From the sequence record NC_054917.1: a stretch of 64,000 bases of DNA. The stretch is one strand, 5' to 3'. Made by a program: the position numbers and the translations under genes. The notes beneath the pieces are model-generated. The model was not told where the DNA came from and did not search any database. It saw only the letters and a program-made list of their open reading frames with translations. The DNA comes from Escherichia phage vB_EcoM_G50. Below, piece by piece: positions 2,189 to 56,648 of the stretch (the first letter of the stretch is position 1; every line of letters starts with the position of its first letter).

Positions 2189-2392
2189 TTAATTCATATT
2201 GCGTTTAATAACTTCAGCAACTTCTAGTAGTTCATCTTTAGTTGCGGTGTCGGATTGAATTTTATCTCTAATATCCTTAAAGCGGTTTTTAAACTCTTCG
2301 GCTTCTCCCATATCGAAAAAGCGTTGAATGATTCTATATTCTCGATGAACTGCTTTATCAAAAAGTTCTAAATTTACTCTATATGATTTCAT
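2189..2392 (-). CDS. small hypothetical protein at the rIIA.1 position
   Basis: 67-aa ORF directly upstream of rIIA, same strand. Confidence 0.55.
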
Positions 2393-2417
2393 TTCAATAT
2401 CCTCATTTGCCCAATTA

Positions 2418-2447
2418 ATTATACCACATCCTTGTGGTAAAGTAAAC
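2418..2447 (-). promoter_or_regulatory. T4-type early promoter (GTTTAC -35, TATAAT -10)
   Basis: Minus strand reads GTTTAC-TTTACCACAAGGATGTGG-TATAAT; -35 overlaps the gene 60 stop codon. Confidence 0.6.
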
Positions 2448-2979
2448 TATTGGCTCATCCATTCTTTACGAAGGTCAGCATTATCTCCCATGAGCATTTC
2501 AAAAAGCTCTTTCCAATTCTCAGGAAGTTTAACAACATCATATACTGGGTTTTGAATCATCTCACGATATTCAGATTTTTCCAAAGAGCCAAGTCCCTTA
2601 ATATAACGGATGCTATGTTTAGGTAGAGCATCTTTGGCACTCTCATATTCAGCGACTGTATAAAACCATTCTTGTTTTTTACCGACCTGAGCGATGATTA
2701 CAGGAGTTTTGACAAAGCGAATTCTTCCTTGTTCAAACAGTTCTGGCCAATTACTAAAAAATCCGAGCAGAGAAGGATAAATAGAACCTAATCCAATAAT
2801 CTCTTAATTATGAGGTATTTCTATGGATAGCCCGAAGGCTATCCATCGTGATCTGCGTCTGTCATAATAGCGACATTCGCATAGTTCATTGAAGAGGATT
2901 TAATAGAACGACGAACATTGTTCTGCAATTTATATTTTTTCATATCAACGCTAGAAGAATCAATTTTTACAAATTTCAT
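2447..2979 (-). CDS. 60: DNA topoisomerase II subunit gp60, translated across a 50-nt coding gap (ribosomal bypass)
   Basis: N-terminal 46 codons MKFVKIDSS...DADHDG end in GGA-TAG; translation resumes after landing GGA with LGSIYPSLLGFF...KEWMSQ; matches T4 gp60. Confidence 0.9.
2792..2841 (-). other. gene 60 translational bypass element: stop codon, UUCG hairpin and 50-nt gap ending in landing GGA
   Basis: Minus strand GGA UAG CCUUCGGGCUAUCCAUAGAAAUACCUCAUAAUUAAGAGAUUAUU GGA UUA; take-off GGA at 2842-2844, landing GGA at 2792-2794. Confidence 0.88.
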
Positions 2980-3778
2980 TATACACCTCATAGAACTTTT
3001 CATCAGGAATCCAACCGCGTTTAAATTCATTAAATGCTCGGCCGAATAATTTTGAATTCACAGTTATATTATTAACTGATTTCCATTTAGCAACTCCCGT
3101 TCGTTTATAATGATCGGGGTCATATTTCGTGACGTACCATTCATATAAATTTGGTATTAATTTTACAGCCTCTGGATTTGTCGCTGATTTATTATACCAT
3201 GGTTTCGCTTTTTCAAGTTCAGCTGCTTTTGCAGTAGCAGCAACAGTATTTCCAATACCAACTAATTTTTCAGCTTTAATGCGTGGATCATTAACATGAA
3301 GACGAAAAACTTCGCCCTTTTCATTTTTAAAGCATGTCATGCCTTTAATTCCAGGAAGCTTAACACCTTTATTAACACCGCACCATTCCTTTGGGTTAAA
3401 TGATCCTTTAATTAATAAGGCGCATTTACCCGATTTAATACTTCTCATTAAAACTTTATCTTTCATAAAGTTTTTTGACCATTCAGATACTGCTCTTTGA
3501 TGGTAAATTCTAGCAATTTCATATAATTTACTAGAACGTAAATATTTTTCAGTGTTTAACATTCTATTCATCGCATATGCCATTTCACGATTACGATGAA
3601 TTTTATATAGTAGAAAATGTGCTAAAAAGTGTTCACGAAAAGTCAGTTTCACCAAATTTTCTTTATCATCAGAACCTCCCATTGATCTTGGAAGGATATG
3701 ATGAATTTCACCCTTAAATTTAGAAACGCGGGTTTTACCCCGCACTATTAAGTCATTATAGATTTTTTCGTAATTCAC
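2960..3778 (-). mobile_element. mobA: HNH homing endonuclease (mobA-like) inserted between topoisomerase genes 39 and 60
   Basis: 272-aa ORF with HNH motif (EIHHILPRSMGG...NLV...REHFLAH); GTG start; overlaps end of gene 39 and start of gene 60. Confidence 0.8.
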
Positions 3779-5306
3779 CTACTGTTATCCATTTACCATT
3801 AATCTGTACTTCATCATTTTCATTTACGATAATTGTATCGCCATTTAGTTCGAAAGTAAACCACTCGCCATCTTCTTTTTCTTCAAACGCCTTTTCACCA
3901 AGAACTAATCCAGTGATTGCGCAAATGTCAAACAGTTCTTTGTTTTTAAGCATATCGGCATATGACATACCCCAACTGTTGAGAACTTTACCACGCAATG
4001 GATAACCACCATGAAGTTCTTTATCACGAACATCAATAAGATATCCGATAGCAGAATCACCCTCAGTCAAGAAAAGAGTAGTGTCAGCGTCTTTACCACA
4101 AAGATTCGCTTTAATATGTTTATGAACCTTAGCTTTAGAAGCCTTTTTAGCTGCTTTAGTTTCTGCTGCTTTTTCTGCCGCCAATTTACGAGCCAAGGCA
4201 GCTTCAATAATTGGCATCAGAATTGCTTCATTATTTAGAATAGCGCGTGAAATCTTTTTAGCATCAAGTTGAATATGACTACGGATTTCACCAAATGGAG
4301 AAGTCAAACGCTCTTTAGTTTGAGAATCAAATCGCATGTTTTTCATATCACGAACAAACATAACGATAGTCAAACATTCTTTAACGCGTGCTTTAGTTAC
4401 ATCAATTTTGAACTTGCGTTTGATTTGTGGAATAAGGTCTTCACAAATATCATCCATAACACAGTCAATGTGATGGCCACCATTCTTAGTATGAATGTTA
4501 TTGACGTATGTTAATTGACGAAAACCGTCGGGTGAACGACCAACCGCAATAGAACAATTTTCTTGTTCTTGAACGATAGCATGTTCATCATATTGGCGTG
4601 CATATTTCTTGAAATTACCCTGAACCTTTTTACCATTAAAGGTAAATTGAATATCAGGATAAACTACTGCAAGTGTCTGGAGACGATCTAGTGTAATGTC
4701 AAGATAAACCTGGGACAGCTCATTAGTTTCAAATGACATAAAATCAGGAATGAAAGTAACGCGAGTTCCTTTCCATTTTCCAGGAATATCTTCCCACGAT
4801 TTATTTTCCATGCCATTCGAGCAGCGAACTACAATATTATTTTGACCGTCGCCAGTTTCACCGACAAACATCACAGAAAAAATGTTAGTTAAACTAGAAC
4901 CAACACCGTTCATACCGCCAGTGACGCGTTCTTTATCATCACCGAAGTTACCACCTGCTTTTGGAATAGTCCATGCAGCAACAGGACCAGGAATTTCTTC
5001 ACCAGTAGGTGTTTTAACCATCGCTTGTGGAATACCGCGACCATTATCTTCAACTGTTACTTGATTGTTTTTAATAGTAACATTAATTTTATTCGCGAAT
5101 TTAAACTTAGTACGAATACCTTCATCTACTGAGTTATCGATAATTTCATCAATAAGCTTAACAAGACCAGGTACATACTGAACACTTTCCCATTTACCAA
5201 ACAGAAAGCGCTCATGCATTTCATTAGCAGAAGAGCCAATATACATGCCGCTACGCTTTTTGATATGTTCAATATCGCTCAGAATTTTAATTTCATTCTT
5301 AATCAT
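3756..5306 (-). CDS. 39: DNA topoisomerase II large subunit gp39 (GyrB-like ATPase)
   Basis: 516 codons from ATG at 5306 (track start 5309 is an upstream GTG); GHKL ATPase and toprim-like motifs; matches T4 gp39. Confidence 0.93.
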   Translation of the reverse strand: MIKNEIKILSDIEHIKKRSGMYIGSSANEMHERFLFGKWESVQYVPGLVKLIDEIIDNSVDEGIRTKFKFANKINVTIKNNQVTVEDNGRGIPQAMVKTPTGEEIPGPVAAWTIPKAGGNFGDDKERVTGGMNGVGSSLTNIFSVMFVGETGDGQNNIVVRCSNGMENKSWEDIPGKWKGTRVTFIPDFMSFETNELSQVYLDITLDRLQTLAVVYPDIQFTFNGKKVQGNFKKYARQYDEHAIVQEQENCSIAVGRSPDGFRQLTYVNNIHTKNGGHHIDCVMDDICEDLIPQIKRKFKIDVTKARVKECLTIVMFVRDMKNMRFDSQTKERLTSPFGEIRSHIQLDAKKISRAILNNEAILMPIIEAALARKLAAEKAAETKAAKKASKAKVHKHIKANLCGKDADTTLFLTEGDSAIGYLIDVRDKELHGGYPLRGKVLNSWGMSYADMLKNKELFDICAITGLVLGEKAFEEKEDGEWFTFELNGDTIIVNENDEVQINGKWITVGELRKNL

Positions 5307-5355: not shown

Positions 5356-5375
5356 GCTAAAGGCCCGAAGGCCTT
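5356..5375 (-). terminator. C(UUCG)G hairpin directly after the 39.1 stop
   Basis: Plus aaggcccgaaggcctt; minus-strand RNA GGCC-UUCG-GGCC. Confidence 0.5.
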
Positions 5376-15760: not shown

Positions 15761-15784
15761 AAAAAGGACTCCCGAAGGAGTCCT
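15761..15784 (-). terminator. rho-independent terminator after soc
   Basis: GGACUCC-UUCG-GGAGUCC hairpin followed by U6 on the minus-strand transcript. Confidence 0.65.
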
Positions 15785-16117: not shown

Positions 16118-16636
16118 TTAATAACCTCGATCTTGACGCGCGAAATTTTCAGCATTTTTCAGGTAATACAGTTTAAAGATTTCTTCAGCAGTAAGACCAA
16201 GACCTTGGAACATATTCAGAACGAAATGGAGAATATCAATCATTTCAAATTTAATTTCCAACTGGTCTTGCGGAGACAAATCAGTAATCAGAGTTTCACG
16301 ACGTTCACCATGCTGCGACTTCCAAGGTTTCCATACAGCAGATGCATCTTTTTCACCATTACTCATACCACCGAGAGAAGTCAGAAGTTCACGGAATTCA
16401 TCGTCAATATAATCTTTCTGATTACGCAACCAATCAACAACTTCACCGGCAGTAGCCAAGTCATCAGGATGACGATTATATTCAGGTTTATCTTTAGCTA
16501 AACGAATCTGCAGAGATTTCTGCATGTCAAGCATAACCTGCAGCGGGTCTTTTTCATCACCGAGAATATCCCAATATTCATTTTGAGCTTTATCAGCGCC
16601 TTCGATCAGTTGACTACATTCGTTGAAATGTGGCAT
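16118..16636 (-). CDS. 56: dCTP pyrophosphatase gp56
   Basis: 172-aa ORF matching T4 gp56 as recalled. Confidence 0.88.
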   Translation of the reverse strand: MPHFNECSQLIEGADKAQNEYWDILGDEKDPLQVMLDMQKSLQIRLAKDKPEYNRHPDDLATAGEVVDWLRNQKDYIDDEFRELLTSLGGMSNGEKDASAVWKPWKSQHGERRETLITDLSPQDQLEIKFEMIDILHFVLNMFQGLGLTAEEIFKLYYLKNAENFARQDRGY

Positions 16637-16637
16637 G

Positions 16638-17288
16638 TTATTTTTCCTTTCTTATGAAGTTTTCTATCATATGTCTATAGCAGATATTAGGATAACCTGC
16701 CTTGACAGCTATTTTATTAAATTTTGTGCGCTTAGGTCTATTATTATAAACCCATAATTCATAAAGCGCATCATAACTATTCCATATTTCTCCTCGCCTA
16801 GGATTTGGTAAACCATATCGAGGCGAATTTTTACCGCTAAATCTTCCTTTTCGGGCTTTACTCATATTAGCCTTGGCTTCATCGGATATAATTTTACCTT
16901 TATGAGCTAGACGCATTTTGGCTTTAGTTTCTTCTGGAGTCTTTTTACCTTTAATCCATGACGGCTTGCCATATCTAGGATTATTTTCACCCGAGAAAAG
17001 AACAGAGTTTTGGATTTTAAGGGTTTCTATTAATCTACTTGTTAATTTAACACCTTTATTATATCGCATTAAATTTACAGCATAATGCAATCCTCTCACA
17101 TCTGGATATATTTTAGTTAATAATCTATGAGCTATAAAATGCTCACGCGCAGTTAACTCAACAAGATTGTTTTTGCCATCTGCTCCTCCCATACATCTAG
17201 GAATTATATGATGGCGTTCTTTATATCCGCCAAGATGCCGGCATTTAGCTTTTGTAATTAAAGCCGAGTAAATTTTTTGGTAATTCAC
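16638..17288 (-). mobile_element. HNH homing endonuclease (Mob family), 216 aa
   Basis: HNH motif ERHHIIPRCMGG...NLV...REHFIAH; repeated G.N.PRYG motifs; GTG start; N-terminus paralogous to mobA-like ORF at 2960-3778. Confidence 0.8.
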
Positions 17289-17358: not shown

Positions 17359-17559
17359 ATGGTACAAAAATTAATGGCACTTGTTAATGCCATAAAAGGT
17401 AATAAAAAACGTATAGCTTTTACTATTTCTGCTATGGTAGGAATTTTACTCTGGAACTTTATTCTATCACCTGTTGCAATTGCGCATGGTATTAATATTC
17501 CAGTAGTTACTCTTGATACATTTGTAGATTTAGCATTTGCTTTAGTTGGGTTGATTTAA
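17359..17559 (+). CDS. small membrane protein, 66 aa, two predicted TM helices
   Basis: Only plus-strand ORF with a strong SD (TAAGGAGG, 4 nt before ATG); hydrophobic segments; convergent with gene 61, stop codons overlap. Confidence 0.5.
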   Translation: MVQKLMALVNAIKGNKKRIAFTISAMVGILLWNFILSPVAIAHGINIPVVTLDTFVDLAFALVGLI

Positions 17560-18584
17560 ATCTTAGCATATTTAGATAGCCGCATTTTAGCCATCAACCC
17601 CTGGGCAATATTATTTTTCATATATTCCATAATTTGTTCAGGGGTTGCACCTTCCTTTCTAATCATATCATTGACATCTTTTGATTTCCAGGGAGATTTA
17701 TCCCAAAACATAACCCTTTCTCCTGCATCAACTAATTTAGTCATTCGCTTAATAGTGTCAGGATGACGAGGTTCATTATCTAAAACCCACACACGTCTAT
17801 CTTTAAATGGAACAACTTCTAGGTCTAATTGACCACCCGTAATAGCTATACCATTTTCAATAAAAAGTGAATCTATAGGTCCTTCTAGAACATATACATC
17901 ACCATCTTTAACTCGTTCTACTCCATAGATTTTTGTTGCCTCAGGATAAGCTTTGATGGTGATATATTTTTGGGGAGCATCTTTCTTTAATGCACGTCCT
18001 TGAAAAGACTCAGCTTTTCCATTAGCATTATAAATTGGAATAACAAGACGAGGCTCAGAAATTTCCTTTTTGTATGTTCCCGGTGCTATGCTATTAACTA
18101 ATTTAGGCCATTCGGTTGTAAACCAAAGATATTTCCATTTATCCTTTGGAATACAACGAGCTTTTACATATTTTATAATTGGATGGTCTTCCGCCAGTTT
18201 ATCTAATCTAACACATGACGGAAGAGATTTAATTATTTTCTTCTCAGGTTGCTTAGGAAGTTCTTTAGGTTTTTCTACTGGACGACTTTTACCTTTTTCT
18301 TTTCTTATTTCAAAGATATACTCACGATATAAATCGGGTTCAAACTCCTTTAAATATATTCCGATTGGTGCATGATAGTTACAGTTATAACAATGAATAT
18401 TTCCTTCATTATTATCACCATAATACCATCCACGAGCTTTATTCTGGTCGGTTTTTGAATCTCCACAAACAGGACATCTAAACCGCAATTTAAAAGTTGA
18501 ACTATTATTTACTTGTGTGAATTTAGGTAAATGAGCTAATGCACGATACGCAAACTCATTATCAATCCAAGGTATTGATGACAT
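17556..18584 (-). CDS. 61: DNA primase gp61
   Basis: 342 aa; zinc ribbon CPVCGD...CYNCNYH; matches T4 gp61. Confidence 0.9.
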   Translation of the reverse strand: MSSIPWIDNEFAYRALAHLPKFTQVNNSSTFKLRFRCPVCGDSKTDQNKARGWYYGDNNEGNIHCYNCNYHAPIGIYLKEFEPDLYREYIFEIRKEKGKSRPVEKPKELPKQPEKKIIKSLPSCVRLDKLAEDHPIIKYVKARCIPKDKWKYLWFTTEWPKLVNSIAPGTYKKEISEPRLVIPIYNANGKAESFQGRALKKDAPQKYITIKAYPEATKIYGVERVKDGDVYVLEGPIDSLFIENGIAITGGQLDLEVVPFKDRRVWVLDNEPRHPDTIKRMTKLVDAGERVMFWDKSPWKSKDVNDMIRKEGATPEQIMEYMKNNIAQGLMAKMRLSKYAKI

Positions 18585-23265: not shown

Positions 23266-24114
23266 TTAATCAACTGCTATTGGATGAATAGCATTAAACT
23301 TATGAAATGCTTCTGATTTTTCTTTACGAGAAACACACATGCGAAGAACCTTTAATGGCTCGTCTTCTTCACCCAACGATTTTCGTTTTTCAATATTAGA
23401 AGTTTTCCAACGAGCTTGCTCTGGAAACTCTCTATTGATTTGCTCAAGCGCTCTATTATGTTTAGAATTACTACGAATTGAACTGCACCCGCCGGGAGCG
23501 TGTGATTTTCCAGATACAACTAGATATTTGAACAAGGCCAAATGCGGATAACCTTGATTAATTAAATTGAGAAATGCATACATATCTTCACATAAATCAA
23601 TTTTTCCATACCCAATTTGTTCTGTCGTAAGTTTTCCGAGGTCATACCATGTATTCGTGAATCCATATGAGTTTTCACGATAATTACCCCAAGATGAAGT
23701 AATTTTAAAAATTGGTAGACGAGCATGACCGTGATAATACCCGCAATCCATAGCATCCTCAACGTATTGAATTAATTCATAGAACTGTTCACGAGTTAAT
23801 TGATTAATTTTATCTACGCGCCGTTTATCGTCTCTCTTTCGTATTGAACTCATACGAATAGTAGTATCATCATCAATCATCCAGATTCGTTGACCTGCAT
23901 ACATATCAGTAATTGCTTTACGAGTACCGGCAATTCCATTAACATCATCAGGAATAGTTACAATTTTAGCTCTAGACCCATAAGCATCATAATAAGCTTT
24001 TTCTTCGTGTTCACGCACTACAATATGTGGTTCATAATCAGTCGGAAACATATCAAGGGCAGAAACTGCCCCTACGCGTTGATAGCTTGGAATTACGAAT
24101 TGAATCATTTCCAC
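23266..24114 (-). CDS. GT-A-fold glycosyltransferase, candidate DNA hmC-glucose modifying enzyme
   Basis: 282 aa with DXD-type motif (WMIDDDTT); sits between uvsX and gene 42, where T4 carries beta-gt. Confidence 0.55.
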   Translation of the reverse strand: MEMIQFVIPSYQRVGAVSALDMFPTDYEPHIVVREHEEKAYYDAYGSRAKIVTIPDDVNGIAGTRKAITDMYAGQRIWMIDDDTTIRMSSIRKRDDKRRVDKINQLTREQFYELIQYVEDAMDCGYYHGHARLPIFKITSSWGNYRENSYGFTNTWYDLGKLTTEQIGYGKIDLCEDMYAFLNLINQGYPHLALFKYLVVSGKSHAPGGCSSIRSNSKHNRALEQINREFPEQARWKTSNIEKRKSLGEEDEPLKVLRMCVSRKEKSEAFHKFNAIHPIAVD

Positions 24115-40732: not shown

Positions 40733-41203
40733 TTAATCATGTTTCCACACCCCATCGGTATTTGACCAAAGTCGCTGATTATCTGATCCTCGCCACAGCT
40801 TTTTGGTCGGAAGATTTTTCTCATACTTCCCATCAATAATAACATCAACATATTTAAGCATTTCTAGTTGTTTAATATCTTCAAATTTATATCCTGTCCA
40901 CAACCAAATGCTTTTATTGGGATAAAGATTTTTTACTGTTTGAACAATGCAATGAACAACATCTCGGTTATCAGGATAGAGAGGGTCTCCTCCAGTTATA
41001 GTTAATCCTTCTATATAATCATTATTCAAACATTCAATTAATTGTTCTAGTGTTTCACCAGTGAATGGAACGCCATTTCTAGCGTTCCATGTTGATTTAT
41101 TATAACACCCTTCACATTTATGCAAACAACCTGTAACGAAAAGAACGACCCTGCATCCAGGGCCATTCACAAAATCGCAAGGATAAAATCTATCATAATT
41201 CAT
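40733..41203 (-). CDS. nrdG: anaerobic ribonucleotide reductase activase NrdG (radical SAM)
   Basis: 156 aa with CxxxCxxC (CLHKCEGC); ATGA overlap with nrdD. Confidence 0.9.
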   Translation of the reverse strand: MNYDRFYPCDFVNGPGCRVVLFVTGCLHKCEGCYNKSTWNARNGVPFTGETLEQLIECLNNDYIEGLTITGGDPLYPDNRDVVHCIVQTVKNLYPNKSIWLWTGYKFEDIKQLEMLKYVDVIIDGKYEKNLPTKKLWRGSDNQRLWSNTDGVWKHD

Positions 41204-43017
41204 TGGTGTTTAACCCTATGCATGATTTCTTTATTTTTGCCGAGATTAAATCCACGTTCGTTCGGATTTCCCAAATAACCACAAGTTCTTCTTATTGTGT
41301 TCATCTTTTTAGGATCAGTTTCTCCACAAATAGAACAAACAAACCCGTTTTCAGTAGGAGTCATTTCATGGGTACTTCCACACGTAAAACATTTATCTAC
41401 TGGCATGTTAACACCAAAATAATCTAAATGTTGTGCAGCATAATCCCATACAGCCTCAAGACCTTTTAGGTTATTTTTCATATCAGGAAGTTCAACATAA
41501 GAAATGTGACCGCCTGTCGCAATGAAATGATATGGGGCTTCGCGAGAAATCTTTTCAAACGGAGTAATATTTTCTTCTACTGAAACGTGGAAACTGTTAG
41601 TGTACCAGCCTTTATCAGTAACATCCTTTACACTTCCATATTTCTCAGTATCAAGTTTACAGAAGCGATAACAAAGGTTTTCAGCAGGTGTAGAATACAA
41701 GCTAAAAGCAAAACCAGTTCTTTCAGTCCACTGCTTAAGACGAGCATTCATTTTAGTTAAAATTTCCTGTCCAATATCACGACCGACAAGAATATTCAAT
41801 TCGTGAATACCAATATATCCTAAGGACACTGAACTTCTACCGTTTTTAAATAACTCAATTATATCATCATCGGGTTTAAGACGAACCCCGAATGCACCTT
41901 CTTGGTAAAGAATAGGAGCAACAGTAGCTTTAACTCCTTTTAATGAACTAATTCTACACATCAATGCTTCAAAACACAAATCCATTCGTTCATTGAACAA
42001 TTCGGCAAATTTCTGTTCATTGAACTGTGTTCCAATATAAGAATCTAATGCAATACGAGGAAGATTCAGTGTTACAACGCCAAGATTATTACGTCCATCA
42101 AGAATTTCATTACCAGTCGAATCTTTCCATACGCTCAAGAAACTACGACAACCCATTGGAGAAACAGGAATAGATGAACCTGTGATAGCTTTATTATTCT
42201 TAGCTGAAATAATATCAGGATACATTCTTTTACTTGCACACTCTAGAGCAAGCTGCTTAATATCATAGTTCGGATCGTCTTTATAAAGATTGACACCCTC
42301 TTCAACGAACATAACAAGCTTAGGAAAAATAGGAGTTATCCCATCACGACCAAGGCCTTTAATACGATTTTTCAGAATTGCTTTCTGAATCATTCGTTCA
42401 GTCCAGTCAGTTCCCGTGCCAAATGTAATTGTTACAAAAGGCGTTTGTCCGTTTGAACTAAAGAGAGTATTTACTTCATATTCATAAGCTTGGAATGCAT
42501 CGTATACGTCTTTTTCTGTTTTAGATTGGGCATAATTCAATGCATCTGCGATTTGCCATTTTTCCGCGTCCTCAATATGTTTTGCATAGGTGCGTTTAAC
42601 ATAAGGAGAAAGTACTTTATCTACATTCGCAAAAGTTGTTCCGCCATATTGATGAGAAGCAACCTGCGCAGTAATTTGTGCCATAATTGCAGTAGCAACG
42701 CCAATTGATTTAGGAGTTTCAATCTGTGCATTACCGAGCTTAAATCCGTTCTCAAGCATTCCTTTTAAATCTACTAAACAACAATTAGTAAATGGAAGAG
42801 CAGGGGAATAATCAATATCGTGGAAATGGATAATTCCGCTTTCATGCGCTTTCATAATAAAAGACGGGACCATATTTTTGGCAATGTGTTTAGACACAAT
42901 ACCAGCCATAAGGTCCCGTTGAGTTGGAAAAACACGAGAATCTTTATTAGCATTCTCGTTCAAAAGGTCTTTATTAGTTTTATGAATTAATCCTTCAATT
43001 TCTTTTTCAATTGTCAT
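41200..43017 (-). CDS. nrdD: anaerobic ribonucleotide reductase NrdD, uninterrupted
   Basis: 605-aa continuous ORF with C-terminal zinc-ribbon and glycyl-radical region; no intron. Confidence 0.92.
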   Translation of the reverse strand: MTIEKEIEGLIHKTNKDLLNENANKDSRVFPTQRDLMAGIVSKHIAKNMVPSFIMKAHESGIIHFHDIDYSPALPFTNCCLVDLKGMLENGFKLGNAQIETPKSIGVATAIMAQITAQVASHQYGGTTFANVDKVLSPYVKRTYAKHIEDAEKWQIADALNYAQSKTEKDVYDAFQAYEYEVNTLFSSNGQTPFVTITFGTGTDWTERMIQKAILKNRIKGLGRDGITPIFPKLVMFVEEGVNLYKDDPNYDIKQLALECASKRMYPDIISAKNNKAITGSSIPVSPMGCRSFLSVWKDSTGNEILDGRNNLGVVTLNLPRIALDSYIGTQFNEQKFAELFNERMDLCFEALMCRISSLKGVKATVAPILYQEGAFGVRLKPDDDIIELFKNGRSSVSLGYIGIHELNILVGRDIGQEILTKMNARLKQWTERTGFAFSLYSTPAENLCYRFCKLDTEKYGSVKDVTDKGWYTNSFHVSVEENITPFEKISREAPYHFIATGGHISYVELPDMKNNLKGLEAVWDYAAQHLDYFGVNMPVDKCFTCGSTHEMTPTENGFVCSICGETDPKKMNTIRRTCGYLGNPNERGFNLGKNKEIMHRVKHQ

Positions 43018-45890: not shown

Positions 45891-46816
45891 TTCAATACCT
45901 CAATAGCATTACGTAAACCATTTGCTTTTGCATTAAGAGCTTTTAACAATTTAGTGTGTTCGGCAATCTGAGCTTCAACTTCAACTAGTCGAGATTTGAG
46001 GTATTCACGTTCTTCGCTCAAGTTATCAATCTTTTCTACTTTAGGCTCTTTTACAACTGTCTTATATGTATTAGGGTTCTTCAGTTTAATTAAAATGCGT
46101 GAACTGTATAACATTGAACCATTATCTTCGGTTTCGTCATACATTTCTACTACGTCCATGATTTTTAACATCATGCGGAGTTTATAAGATAACGAACGAA
46201 TAGTTTTGTTGTGCTTATTAATTTCTCTAGAGTTCATGGTGCCGAGATTACGTGAGTAATAATAAGGAACCTGGATATTAATTAATACTGATGAACCACC
46301 TGGCTTGTGTGTTACTTCATCAGCAATAACCCAATCCTTAACATGAACTGTATTTGTACGGTCATCGCCCGCGGTAAATAGTTTGCGAGCATGCTTAAAA
46401 AGCATATTCACTTGGTCATTGAATTGACAAGCAAATTTATCAGCAAATTTAGTTTCAGGAATGGTAGATAACCAATCAGCCAAATGGGTCTTTTTAACAT
46501 CGTTAACAATAGTAAATTCAACCAAATCAGTTATAGATGTCTCAGATTTAATAAAGCTCGGCTTCATAAAGTTTTTAATGTTATCGCGAGCTACAGTAGA
46601 AGATAACATACGAGAACGTTTAAACCATTGAAGCAAATTGCCCAACGAATGAGAATAAGCGTTTTGAGTATCTTTACAGATATGATTTTCCTGGCCAACA
46701 TATTGAAGGAAATCACGAAGAATATTATTGATTACTGCTCTGTGTCCGATCTGATAATTACGGTGTTTAGTAATAAGACTGTCAAAATAATCAATATAAT
46801 GTTTACGAGTTTTCAT
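45887..46816 (-). CDS. paralog family member 1 with C-terminal coiled coil
   Basis: 309 aa; conserved mid-region and C-terminal heptad tail shared with the next three ORFs. Confidence 0.5.
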   Translation of the reverse strand: MKTRKHYIDYFDSLITKHRNYQIGHRAVINNILRDFLQYVGQENHICKDTQNAYSHSLGNLLQWFKRSRMLSSTVARDNIKNFMKPSFIKSETSITDLVEFTIVNDVKKTHLADWLSTIPETKFADKFACQFNDQVNMLFKHARKLFTAGDDRTNTVHVKDWVIADEVTHKPGGSSVLINIQVPYYYSRNLGTMNSREINKHNKTIRSLSYKLRMMLKIMDVVEMYDETEDNGSMLYSSRILIKLKNPNTYKTVVKEPKVEKIDNLSEEREYLKSRLVEVEAQIAEHTKLLKALNAKANGLRNAIEVLK

Positions 46817-46868
46817 GTTCTTCTCACTTGGTTAATGATTTATACTCCGAGCCATCCTTGGCTTTAAA

Positions 46869-47870
46869 TTACTTAATTAACTGTAAAGCTTGTTCCAAAC
46901 GATCAAGGCGATTAACAGATTCTTCCCAAATCCTTTTAGCCTTCTCATATTCTTTCTGCGCTTTATTAGAAATTTCTAGAACTTCTTTATAAGCTTTTTC
47001 TAGTGCAATAACTTCTGGACGAATTTCTATCGGTTCAGGCGAATCGTCAAGACATTCCATTAGTTCTTCAAGGGTAGTTTCTTCTTTAGGAGTATTCACA
47101 ATTTCATCACATTTTTGTTGGTAAATTTCTTTATCAGTCGGTGAGTACGTACGTTTCACTTCACGAAGGCTAATTATAATTTTATATCCTTCCCAACCAC
47201 ACATATTTTTGAAAGGATATGTATGAATACTTTTTACAGTTTCCATACAGCCCAAAACCGCCTCTAATTGATAAGTTATAGTGCTAGCAATTGAGAAAAA
47301 TTTATTAATATTCTTTTGGTTAGCGTTTGGTGTAAAAAATCCATAATTCACAAAAATAGCTACTTTATTTTCATCAAGCTCATATTCTTTTACGATAATC
47401 ATATCAGAAGCCAAAGGATGAATTTGACGATAATCGCCATAACATAATTTAGAAGCTGATTTTAGAATTTGTCCTTTGAAAAGTCTGAAATTACTAATCC
47501 AACGACGAGTAAAAATATTCTCAGGATCTTCTTTATTATTAAGATGATAAGAATTAACATCACCGAACCAATTATATCCTACTACATCTTTAGTTCGTTT
47601 AATTTCTTTCCCAAATTTACTAAGAATATCTCTGTTGACTAAGTATGAAAGAAGACGAGACCCTTTAAAGGTTTTCTTAATGTCATCTTTATCTGTACGA
47701 CTAGAAATTTCACGAACTTCATGAATAAATTTGCCGGAAGAAACAATACTTGCATCAGTATTATTGAGCCATTGATTGATAATAGAAATCACACTATTCT
47801 GACTAGACATAGGTTTAACTTTATCATCAATAACGCTGTTGAACGATTTAATATATTCGTTGCGAGTCAT
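46869..47870 (-). CDS. paralog family member 2 with C-terminal coiled coil
   Basis: Start at MTRNEY with GAGGAG SD; family tail ...LEQALQLIK. Confidence 0.5.
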   Translation of the reverse strand: MTRNEYIKSFNSVIDDKVKPMSSQNSVISIINQWLNNTDASIVSSGKFIHEVREISSRTDKDDIKKTFKGSRLLSYLVNRDILSKFGKEIKRTKDVVGYNWFGDVNSYHLNNKEDPENIFTRRWISNFRLFKGQILKSASKLCYGDYRQIHPLASDMIIVKEYELDENKVAIFVNYGFFTPNANQKNINKFFSIASTITYQLEAVLGCMETVKSIHTYPFKNMCGWEGYKIIISLREVKRTYSPTDKEIYQQKCDEIVNTPKEETTLEELMECLDDSPEPIEIRPEVIALEKAYKEVLEISNKAQKEYEKAKRIWEESVNRLDRLEQALQLIK

Positions 47871-47898
47871 ATTAATCTCCTCAGTAGAAAGTAAGAAC

Positions 47899-47928
47899 AT
47901 TATACCACATCCTTGTGGCGAAGTAAAC
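47899..47928 (-). promoter_or_regulatory. T4-type early promoter
   Basis: GTTTAC-TTCGCCACAAGGATGTGG-TATAAT; -10-proximal sequence shared with 2418-2447. Confidence 0.55.
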
Positions 47929-48947
47929 TAGTTTAGTGCATTTAGTGCGTTGTTCAATTTAGAACGTTGCTTCGTGAGATTTTTTACTTTTTCTTGAGCT
48001 TTTTCTAGCATCTTTTCAGCTTCTAACACTTCATTAGTTGCTTTAACGAGTTCATCATCTACTGCCTTGATAGACTTTTCAATCGCATCCGCGTGCCATT
48101 TTTCAACAGGTTTAAGACTCGGATTTTCAACAGGAAGAAAATTCACTTTATTGAATTTCCATGCATCATTATTACCTGAACTATACATCCAAAATTTAGG
48201 ATCGTTTGATGAGTAATTAGATAAATTTAAGTTATCTTGCACTTCCTGCTTTTTCTCTTGCGGGACTTCATCTTTTCTCAAAAATTCATATTTAAATGAA
48301 ACGATCATATCAAGTTCATATGATGTTGTATCTAACTTAAATCGTTCAAAACGAGGTAAAATCTTAGATTGAACAGCAGCAACAACATCCATATACTTAA
48401 ATGCTTCTGTCAACTGCGATTTAAGGCATTCGCAAATTGAAAGAGAATTTTTTGTATTAGGTTTAAAGCTAATTCGTGCAGTTCTATTATTTTCTTTTAA
48501 TGGTCTTACTTCCATCTGAAGAGTATAACCATCAAATTTCAGGTTCTTTAAGTTAATATCAGAACCTTTTAATCGACTCGCAGTTGATAAAATTTGCTTT
48601 AATTGTCTACGGAATAGAGCAATAAATCTCCATTCAATACGATAATGATTTGGATTGAAAAATCCAGATGATAAATCGACCTTACTTTGACCAACGCCTT
48701 GAACAAATAGAGGATTTTTATAATCAATAGTTTTACAGAAATCGGTGAGCTGCTCACGAGCAGTCATTTGTGTAATATACCCCGCTTTACTAAAATGACG
48801 TAACCATTCACTGCTATTCATATATTTAAAGTGAATATCACGATTAACTTTATCAGGGTCTAAATTATTTTGGCACAAAAATGTCATAACATCACGAGTA
48901 TAGCTGGCATTACGAATCATATCTTCAATTTGAGAACGAGTTTTCAT
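47928..48947 (-). CDS. paralog family member 3 with C-terminal coiled coil
   Basis: 339-aa ORF. Confidence 0.5.
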   Translation of the reverse strand: MKTRSQIEDMIRNASYTRDVMTFLCQNNLDPDKVNRDIHFKYMNSSEWLRHFSKAGYITQMTAREQLTDFCKTIDYKNPLFVQGVGQSKVDLSSGFFNPNHYRIEWRFIALFRRQLKQILSTASRLKGSDINLKNLKFDGYTLQMEVRPLKENNRTARISFKPNTKNSLSICECLKSQLTEAFKYMDVVAAVQSKILPRFERFKLDTTSYELDMIVSFKYEFLRKDEVPQEKKQEVQDNLNLSNYSSNDPKFWMYSSGNNDAWKFNKVNFLPVENPSLKPVEKWHADAIEKSIKAVDDELVKATNEVLEAEKMLEKAQEKVKNLTKQRSKLNNALNALN

Positions 48948-52630: not shown

Positions 52631-52648
52631 GGGAGCCCGAAGGCTCCC
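52631..52648 (-). terminator. rho-independent terminator after the nucleotidyltransferase gene
   Basis: GGGAGCC-UUCG-GGCUCCC hairpin then U6AUUU. Confidence 0.65.
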
Positions 52649-56630: not shown

Positions 56631-56648
56631 AGTCTCCCGAAGGAGACT
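56631..56648 (-). terminator. rho-independent terminator
   Basis: GUCUCC-UUCG-GGAGAC hairpin then U6. Confidence 0.65.

Follow-up and report, generated by a model that had tools for sequence, protein, structure and literature searches.

The 64,000 nt of Escherichia phage vB_EcoM_G50 that we analysed (sequence record NC_054917.1; referred to here as the window) carry on the minus strand a region that is, judging from its sequence, very probably a functional T4-type gene 60 bypass cassette, located at the 3′ end of an intact MobA element in the gene for the large subunit of topoisomerase II. The cassette is a textbook system whose related copies had been catalogued by 2022, and as such it is already known; the 50-nt bypass of T4 gene 60 was reportedly described by Huang et al. 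1988, Weiss et al. 1990, Samatova 2014 and Agirrezabala 2017. What we add here is the intact mobA gene, a C at position 2825 that preserves base pairing, a weaker predicted downstream stem-loop, and the refutation of a lineage inference that had been drawn from the cassette. The initial annotation of this DNA overlooked the intact mobA, as opposed to that of laboratory T4, as well as the single-base variant of the take-off stem.

When we read the minus strand directly over window positions 2400-3300, we found the sequence ...GAU CAC GAU GGA UAG CCUUCGGGCUAUCCAUAGAAAUACCUCAUAAUUAAGAGAUUAUU GGA UUA GGU..., in which the cassette is organized as follows.

2842-2979, minus strand: gene 60 ORF1, codons 1-46, from translation; MKFVKIDSSSVDMKKYKLQNNVRRSIKSSSMNYANVAIMTDADHDG; its last codon is the take-off glycine
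2890-2940, minus strand: nascent-peptide bypass signal, codons 14-30; KKYKLQNNVRRSIKSSS; identical to T4
2842-2844, minus strand: take-off codon GGA, Gly46, from the minus-strand reading with the layout recomputed
2839-2841, minus strand: UAG, in frame after the take-off GGA, from the same reading and recomputed layout
2792-2841, minus strand: untranslated coding gap of exactly 50 nt; UAGCCUUCGGGCUAUCCAUAGAAAUACCUCAUAAUUAAGAGAUUAUUGGA; corresponds to the T4 misc_feature 2803-2852
2801-2803, minus strand: GAG, Shine-Dalgarno-like, 6 nt 5′ of the landing codon
2792-2794, minus strand: landing codon GGA, the only GGA of the gap, layout recomputed
2447-2791, minus strand: gene 60 ORF2, codons 47-160 and stop, from translation; resume codon UUA at 2791-2789, stop codon at 2449-2447

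The coordinates that the initial annotation gave, among them those of the take-off and landing codons, were all correct on recomputation, and the nascent-peptide signal, the in-frame UAG, the UUCG hairpin containing the stop, the gap of exactly 50 nt and the landing GGA followed by UUA, which it had also listed, were each found. The 6-nt spacing of the GAG is inside the 5-7 nt expected for a mini Shine-Dalgarno in AU-rich sequence. ORF2 lies in a different frame from ORF1 and the gap holds stop codons in frames 0, 1 and 2; because all three frames are closed in this way, neither read-through of the UAG nor a +/-1 frameshift can join the two ORFs. The ORF1 peptide, which is the same as that of T4, has the signal residues KKYK, Y16, Q19, V22, R24, Y33, M39, T40 and H44, of which KKYK is a key part of the signal while Y16, Q19, V22 and R24 are conserved or implicated (bypass literature). 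It also matches chain C of PDB entry 5NP6 (E = 9e-26), the nascent chain in the cryo-EM take-off complex.

An alignment with T4 gene 60, which the initial annotation had proposed as a check, showed 98.9% identity to T4 (NC_000866.4, E = 0) over the 561 nt from position 3000 to 2440, with one change in the gap. In the T4 record, gene 60 occupies the matching stretch and a "non-coding translational bypass region" is marked within it. From 3000 to 2826 the window is the same as T4 for 175 nt, a stretch that takes in ORF1 with its take-off codon and reaches 16 nt into the gap. With 98.9% identity, an E value of 0 and these 175 identical nucleotides, a chance resemblance to the T4 element is excluded. 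Six nucleotide differences were observed in the alignment, one in the gap and five in or at the end of ORF2, and the latter are synonymous in five cases out of five. The joined protein of 160 amino acids is 100% identical to T4 gp60, so that the downstream frame does give the expected gp60 C-terminus, and it was assigned to Pfam TOPRIM_C and to PHROG 7229 (E = 2.4e-81). In it, the Toprim-domain sequence of the topoisomerase II large subunit is uninterrupted again.

The two loci share the gene and its position, a 46-codon ORF1, the gp60 product and 49 of the 50 gap bases, as well as the take-off and landing GGA, the UAG, the UUCG hairpin, the GAG spacing and the 5′ stem-loop. They differ at position 2825, where the window has C and T4 has U, giving a G-C in place of a G.U at the base of the stem; in three synonymous changes of the window located 52-67 nt past the landing codon; and in mobA, which is intact in the window and a pseudogene with 11 inserted bases in laboratory T4. 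A more distant parallel is found in the mitochondrial "byp" inserts of Magnusiomyces capitatus, which are likewise short non-coding inserts skipped between matched codons. However, these have an unrelated sequence, occur many times per genome and show no dependence on a nascent peptide or a UUCG hairpin, so the likeness is one of analogy only.

We infer how bypass would proceed in this phage from its near-identity with T4, in which the steps are experimental (PMC5462505, PMC6551183, PMC5009743). Ribosomes would first translate codons 1-46, and the nascent peptide (KKYK...SSS) in the exit tunnel would slow the ribosome and inactivate the peptidyl-transferase centre. Once GGA-46 occupies the P site and the UAG the A site, the apical CC-UUCG-GG hairpin would form in the latter and block both RF1 and read-through. 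Pseudotranslocation would then be driven by EF-G, the peptidyl-tRNA(Gly) would unpair, and the ribosome would slide with consumption of GTP, its first forward steps presumably aided by the folding of the 5′ stem-loop. The tRNA would re-pair at the landing GGA and decoding would resume at UUA in the other frame, resulting in the 160-aa gp60. In T4, about 50% of the ribosomes complete the hop (bypass literature).

The RNA structures on which such a process would depend, together with the gap variant that falls within one of them, were located as follows.

2823-2846, minus strand: take-off stem-loop by MFE folding, 10 bp with a UUCG loop, holding the take-off GGA and the UAG
2854-2881, minus strand: 5′ stem-loop upstream of the take-off stem, predicted at -10.1 kcal/mol (z = -3.2), same as in T4
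2825, minus strand: the single gap difference from T4, C here and U in T4, from the alignments
2730-2769, minus strand: candidate 3′ stem-loop ("forward slippage barrier"), predicted, weakened by a G to A change at 2732

Compared with shuffled sequence, folding is significantly better for the take-off hairpin and for the 5′ stem-loop. The take-off stem-loop has an energy of -17.0 kcal/mol (z = -6.0), and none of 200 shuffles folded as well; the MFE of the T4 take-off stem is -14.7 kcal/mol, which makes the stem of the window 2.3 kcal/mol more stable. C2825 pairs with G2844, the first base of the take-off GGA, and converts a wobble G.U into a G-C. The A-site hairpin in the cryo-EM structure consists of the apical three G-C pairs (PMC5462505, PMC6551183, PMC5009743), and little effect of C2825 is expected because it lies outside these pairs and the P-site tRNA holds the base opposite it at take-off. 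We expect a substitution that keeps and strengthens the pairing at the base of the stem to be neutral or mildly favourable. That the sole natural substitution in the gap preserves pairing also gives a small comparative support to the take-off stem itself.

The changes at 2740, 2732 and 2725, which lie 52-67 nt past that codon, jointly weaken the predicted 3′ stem-loop, the G to A change at 2732 turning a predicted C-G pair into a C.A mismatch. Over the same 75 nt, the predicted energy is -11.5 kcal/mol here vs -15.9 kcal/mol in T4, and the fold is no better than that of shuffles. The same three changes occur in PD112, and the forward slippage barrier is described as host-phage-encoded and poorly conserved, even within clades (literature). 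In the folding model, the weakening could lower the fidelity or efficiency of landing. The initial annotation had called the bypass element intact; this holds at the level of sequence for the parts that it named, but the gap is one base off T4 and the predicted 3′ stem-loop is weaker.

We consider it possible, albeit doubtful, that C2825 and the weaker downstream stem-loop together make this locus a natural efficiency variant in which completion of the hop is measurably altered. If so, it would belong to a natural allelic series that could be used to dissect the timing of full refolding of the take-off stem during sliding, and the C2825 variant is in any case a ready-made construct for bypass-efficiency assays. 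It is distinctly less probable, and on the whole unlikely, that these changes shift bypass efficiency substantially, to well below or well above the T4 value of about 50%. Such a shift would be in line with the 2.3 kcal/mol gained by the take-off stem and the 4.4 kcal/mol lost by the predicted 3′ stem-loop, and the literature reports that hairpin stability affects efficiency and that gap deletions can raise it. However, C2825 is outside the apical three G-C pairs of the A-site hairpin and the same C is found in three other viable isolates, while the downstream changes are shared with PD112 and affect a stem-loop reported as non-conserved even within clades. Were the shift real, it would mean a different dose of gp60 or a dependence on compensation.

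The reading of the locus as a working bypass cassette can also be approached, independently of T4, from the parental gene. The initial annotation held that the topoisomerase gene of T2 and T6 is unsplit, and we indeed found it as a single CDS of 605 amino acids (2447-4264) in AP018813 and AP018814. The flanking gene sequence is 95-98% identical to that of the window, and gp39 joined to gp60 aligns collinearly with the 605-aa protein, whereas T2 and T6 are without the MobA element, the split or the bypass. The unsplit protein reads ...NIAIMTDADHDGLGSIYPSLLGFF..., and the end of ORF1 (TDADHDG) and the start of ORF2 (LGSIYPSLL) abut on it exactly, the G46|L47 junction being collinear with the uninterrupted ...TDADHDGLGSIYPSLL... 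of T2/T6 gp39. Since the unsplit gene matches both ORF ends, the parental comparison predicts the very junction expected from bypassing.

This collinearity weighs heavily against the notion that no bypass occurs and that the locus instead yields a separate 46-aa peptide and a C-terminal fragment with its own internal initiation, which we regard as very improbable. Phages F26, 215Ecol030PP, LH2, GRNsp7, Manna and PD112 have been auto-annotated in just this way, with two CDSs, but the internal starts (2740, or a TTG at 2770 in some phages) would lose residues that are contiguous and conserved in T2/T6 gp39. Moreover, the substitutions between the landing codon and these internal starts are all synonymous in the ORF2 frame, and in T4, where the sequence is the same, bypass has been demonstrated by experiment (bypass literature). 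Across nine aligned phages the variation in ORF2 is likewise entirely synonymous, including at sites 7-9 codons past the landing codon. Independent initiation of ORF2 was rejected on the T2/T6 collinearity and because only synonymous changes precede the supposed starts, and the two-CDS annotation is a gene-caller artefact.

Weakest of all, and in our view exceedingly improbable, is the suggestion that the UUCG hairpin is mainly a transcription terminator or RNA-stability element rather than a recoding signal: its tip CCUUCGGG occurs five times in the window, always on the transcribed strand, vs 0.43 expected by chance, and it is a known recurrent motif of T4 hairpins (literature), but this hairpin has no following U-tract and is placed within a reading frame, precisely where the take-off codon and the stop lie. 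A terminator scan of window 2300-4000 found no terminator. The gene 60 hairpin was thus rejected as a terminator on the missing U-tract and the negative scan.

Turning to the element that carries the cassette, we identified the following features on the same strand.

2783-3891, minus strand: whole MobA mobile element, 1109 nt, delimited by blastn against T2 and T6
2960-3778, minus strand: mobA, intact ORF for a 272-aa HNH homing endonuclease, GTG start
3756-5306, minus strand: gene 39, 516 aa, N-terminal part of the topoisomerase II large subunit, ATG at 5306

In blastn comparisons with T2 and T6, homology ended at window position 3892 and picked up at 2782, and therefore 1109 nt stand in place of 67 nt of the unsplit T2/T6 gene, at the conserved Topo2L insertion site. 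This insert encodes a C-terminal extension of gp39, MobA and an N-terminal extension of gp60, and it continues through the 50-nt cassette for 9 more nt. Its homR stretch, from 2877 to 2843, has 80-83% identity to the deleted parental T2/T6 sequence. Published values for the clade 1 MobA element are a length of 1097-1106 nt, a MobA of 269-279 aa, a deletion of 55-75 nt and 9 nt of homR past the cassette (Manning & Atkins, bioRxiv 10.1101/2022.08.31.505936). In size and layout, the element of the window fits the published clade 1 element closely. It shares with clade 1 in E. coli T4-like phages such as HY01 the gene overlaps, the 67-nt replacement, the homR and the 9-nt extension, and differs only by its rarer C2825 allele. 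Clade 1 was reportedly studied by Bonocora et al. 2011.

The mobA gene overlaps, out of frame, 23 nt of the end of gene 39 and 20 nt of the start of gene 60, and we thus found the HNH gene splitting gene 39 from gene 60 that the initial annotation had described. The ORF matches PHROG 655 "homing endonuclease" (E = 2.5e-57), whereas the Pfam HNH match is weak, at 20.1 bits and below the cut-off of 21.4. It is uninterrupted in the window, in PD112 and in the other natural isolates compared; in contrast, the mobA of laboratory T4 has 11 extra bases at 10 sites and about eight substitutions, and is annotated as defective. These T4 changes (record NC_000866.4, 2971-3767) fall within about 600 nt while the rest of the element is nearly unchanged. 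They set laboratory T4 apart from every natural isolate compared, and for a pseudogene such close packing of small insertions is unusual. In gene 39, the last 44 codons or so (3759-3891) are the element-encoded C-terminal extension, the boundary being taken from the T2/T6 blastn. The gp39 protein contains the Pfam domains HATPase_c and DNA_gyraseB and differs from T4 gp39 at 7 amino acids, none of them in the C-terminal extension, which is identical.

Intact MobA of related phages nicks targets that lack the interruption and transfers the element to T2, and the 50-nt insert shields its carrier from self-cleavage (Manning & Atkins 2022, citing Bonocora et al. 2011). In this phage, the role of the insert in the DNA would be to guard the element-bearing genome against its own MobA, the target of which would be the uninterrupted sequence, for example that of T2.

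The initial annotation had concluded from the cassette, together with the mobA-like gene, that the phage belongs to the T4 lineage rather than to that of T2 and T6. This conclusion does not stand, as the backbone is equidistant, the T4-type genes looked for are missing, the glucosyltransferase is of the T2/T6 type and the element is mobile. Over 48 kb, identity is 95.4% with T4, 96.0% with T2 and 95.5% with T6, and for rIIA and the N-terminal part of gene 39 it is 95.2-96.1% with T4, 95.4-95.8% with T2 and 95.4-96.1% with T6. Among the best database matches over 25 kb, at about 94-96%, some phages carry the cassette (ELT1, LH2, GRNsp7) and others do not (vB_Eco-B1.1, G4498 and the Yersinia PYps phages). 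The homing element has been found to convert T2 in mixed infection and to have entered several phage clades by independent insertions (Manning & Atkins, bioRxiv 10.1101/2022.08.31.505936).

As for gene content, blastn of T4 beta-gt, segA, segF, mobB, mobC and I-TevII against the window gave no match. We found instead a beta-glucosyl-HMC-alpha-glucosyltransferase gene of the T2/T6 type at 23266-24108 on the minus strand (PHROG 842, E = 4e-88), in the position occupied in T4 by segA and beta-gt. With this transferase present and beta-gt absent, the DNA glucosylation gene set is T2/T6-like. Only the two exon parts of T4 nrdD align with the nrdD of the window (41200-43017, minus strand), and an Rfam scan of the window returned no match at the gathering threshold, group I intron included. 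Because nrdD matches in its exons only and neither I-TevII, mobC nor an intron was found, the phage seems to be without the T4 nrdD intron and the neighbouring homing endonuclease. A tRNA scan of the window detected no tRNA genes. The cassette is best read as a mobile trait on a mosaic Tequatrovirus backbone, and a T4 placement is not supported.

The part of the first 48 kb that diverges most is window 46000-48000, of which T4 covers 33% (79% identity) and T2/T6 about 85% (87-89% identity). On the minus strand at 16638-17288, a second Mob-like HNH endonuclease ORF starts with GTG and encodes 216 aa, of which residues 1-92 show 49% identity to MobA (E = 8e-23). Its neighbours are gene 56 (16118-16636) and gene 61 (17556-18584), and dam is found at this place in T4 and T2; blastn detected no dam in the window.

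To see how widely the cassette occurs, we searched 50,697 phage records and found the bypass region in 40 of them; the variant survey is based on these 40 GenBank phages. A total of 496 records match part of the 561-nt query, and 456 of these are without the cassette. The C2825 allele is present in three of the 40 cassette-bearing records, namely vB_Eco_F26, 215Ecol030PP and LH2. Over the 188 nt of ORF1 and gap, nine aligned sequences have only two variable places, the U/C at 2825 and an extra U in GRNsp7. When we compared the whole 1109-nt element with seven natural isolates, we found 2-4 substitutions (99.6-99.8% identity, plus a 1-base indel in GRNsp7), while the adjacent 1212 nt on the gene 60/rIIA side showed 26-47 differences (2.1-3.9%) in six of the seven; in the seventh, CJY920, 329 nt of the flank align at 87% identity. 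This roughly tenfold contrast in divergence between element and flank is the mark of recent horizontal spread. The cassette is unfit as a lineage marker, since it belongs to a homing element, is about tenfold less diverged than its flank and occurs in only 40 of the 496 matching phages.

IMG/VR viral contigs gave no match, either to the full gap pattern or to a shorter one for the take-off site. A scan of JGI metagenomes returned one contig, Ga0079226_10034289, which has the U allele and a mobA without T4-type indels.

In most GenBank records of related phages, gene 60 has been broken up by gene callers into two spurious CDSs. In those of PD112, F26, 215Ecol030PP, LH2, GRNsp7 and Manna, the gene is listed as a 46-aa ORF and an internally started fragment, and the bypass is unannotated. 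The proper annotation of the locus is one joined CDS with a 50-nt bypass, along with an intact mobA.

In Salmonella phage GRNsp7 (ON720975.1, about position 1272), an extra T is located between the GAG and the landing GGA, which gives a gap of 51 nt and a GAG-to-GGA spacing of 7 nt. The frame of resumption would be unaffected, since landing is set by codon re-pairing. The extra T could also be a homopolymer sequencing error.

The five CCUUCGGG hairpin tips of the window are all on the minus strand, at 2831-2838, 5364-5371, 15771-15778, 52636-52643 and 56636-56643. Besides the gene 60 copy, one lies directly upstream of gene 39 and another directly downstream of soc. Their repetition fits with the known recurrent stable UUCG hairpins of T4 transcripts.
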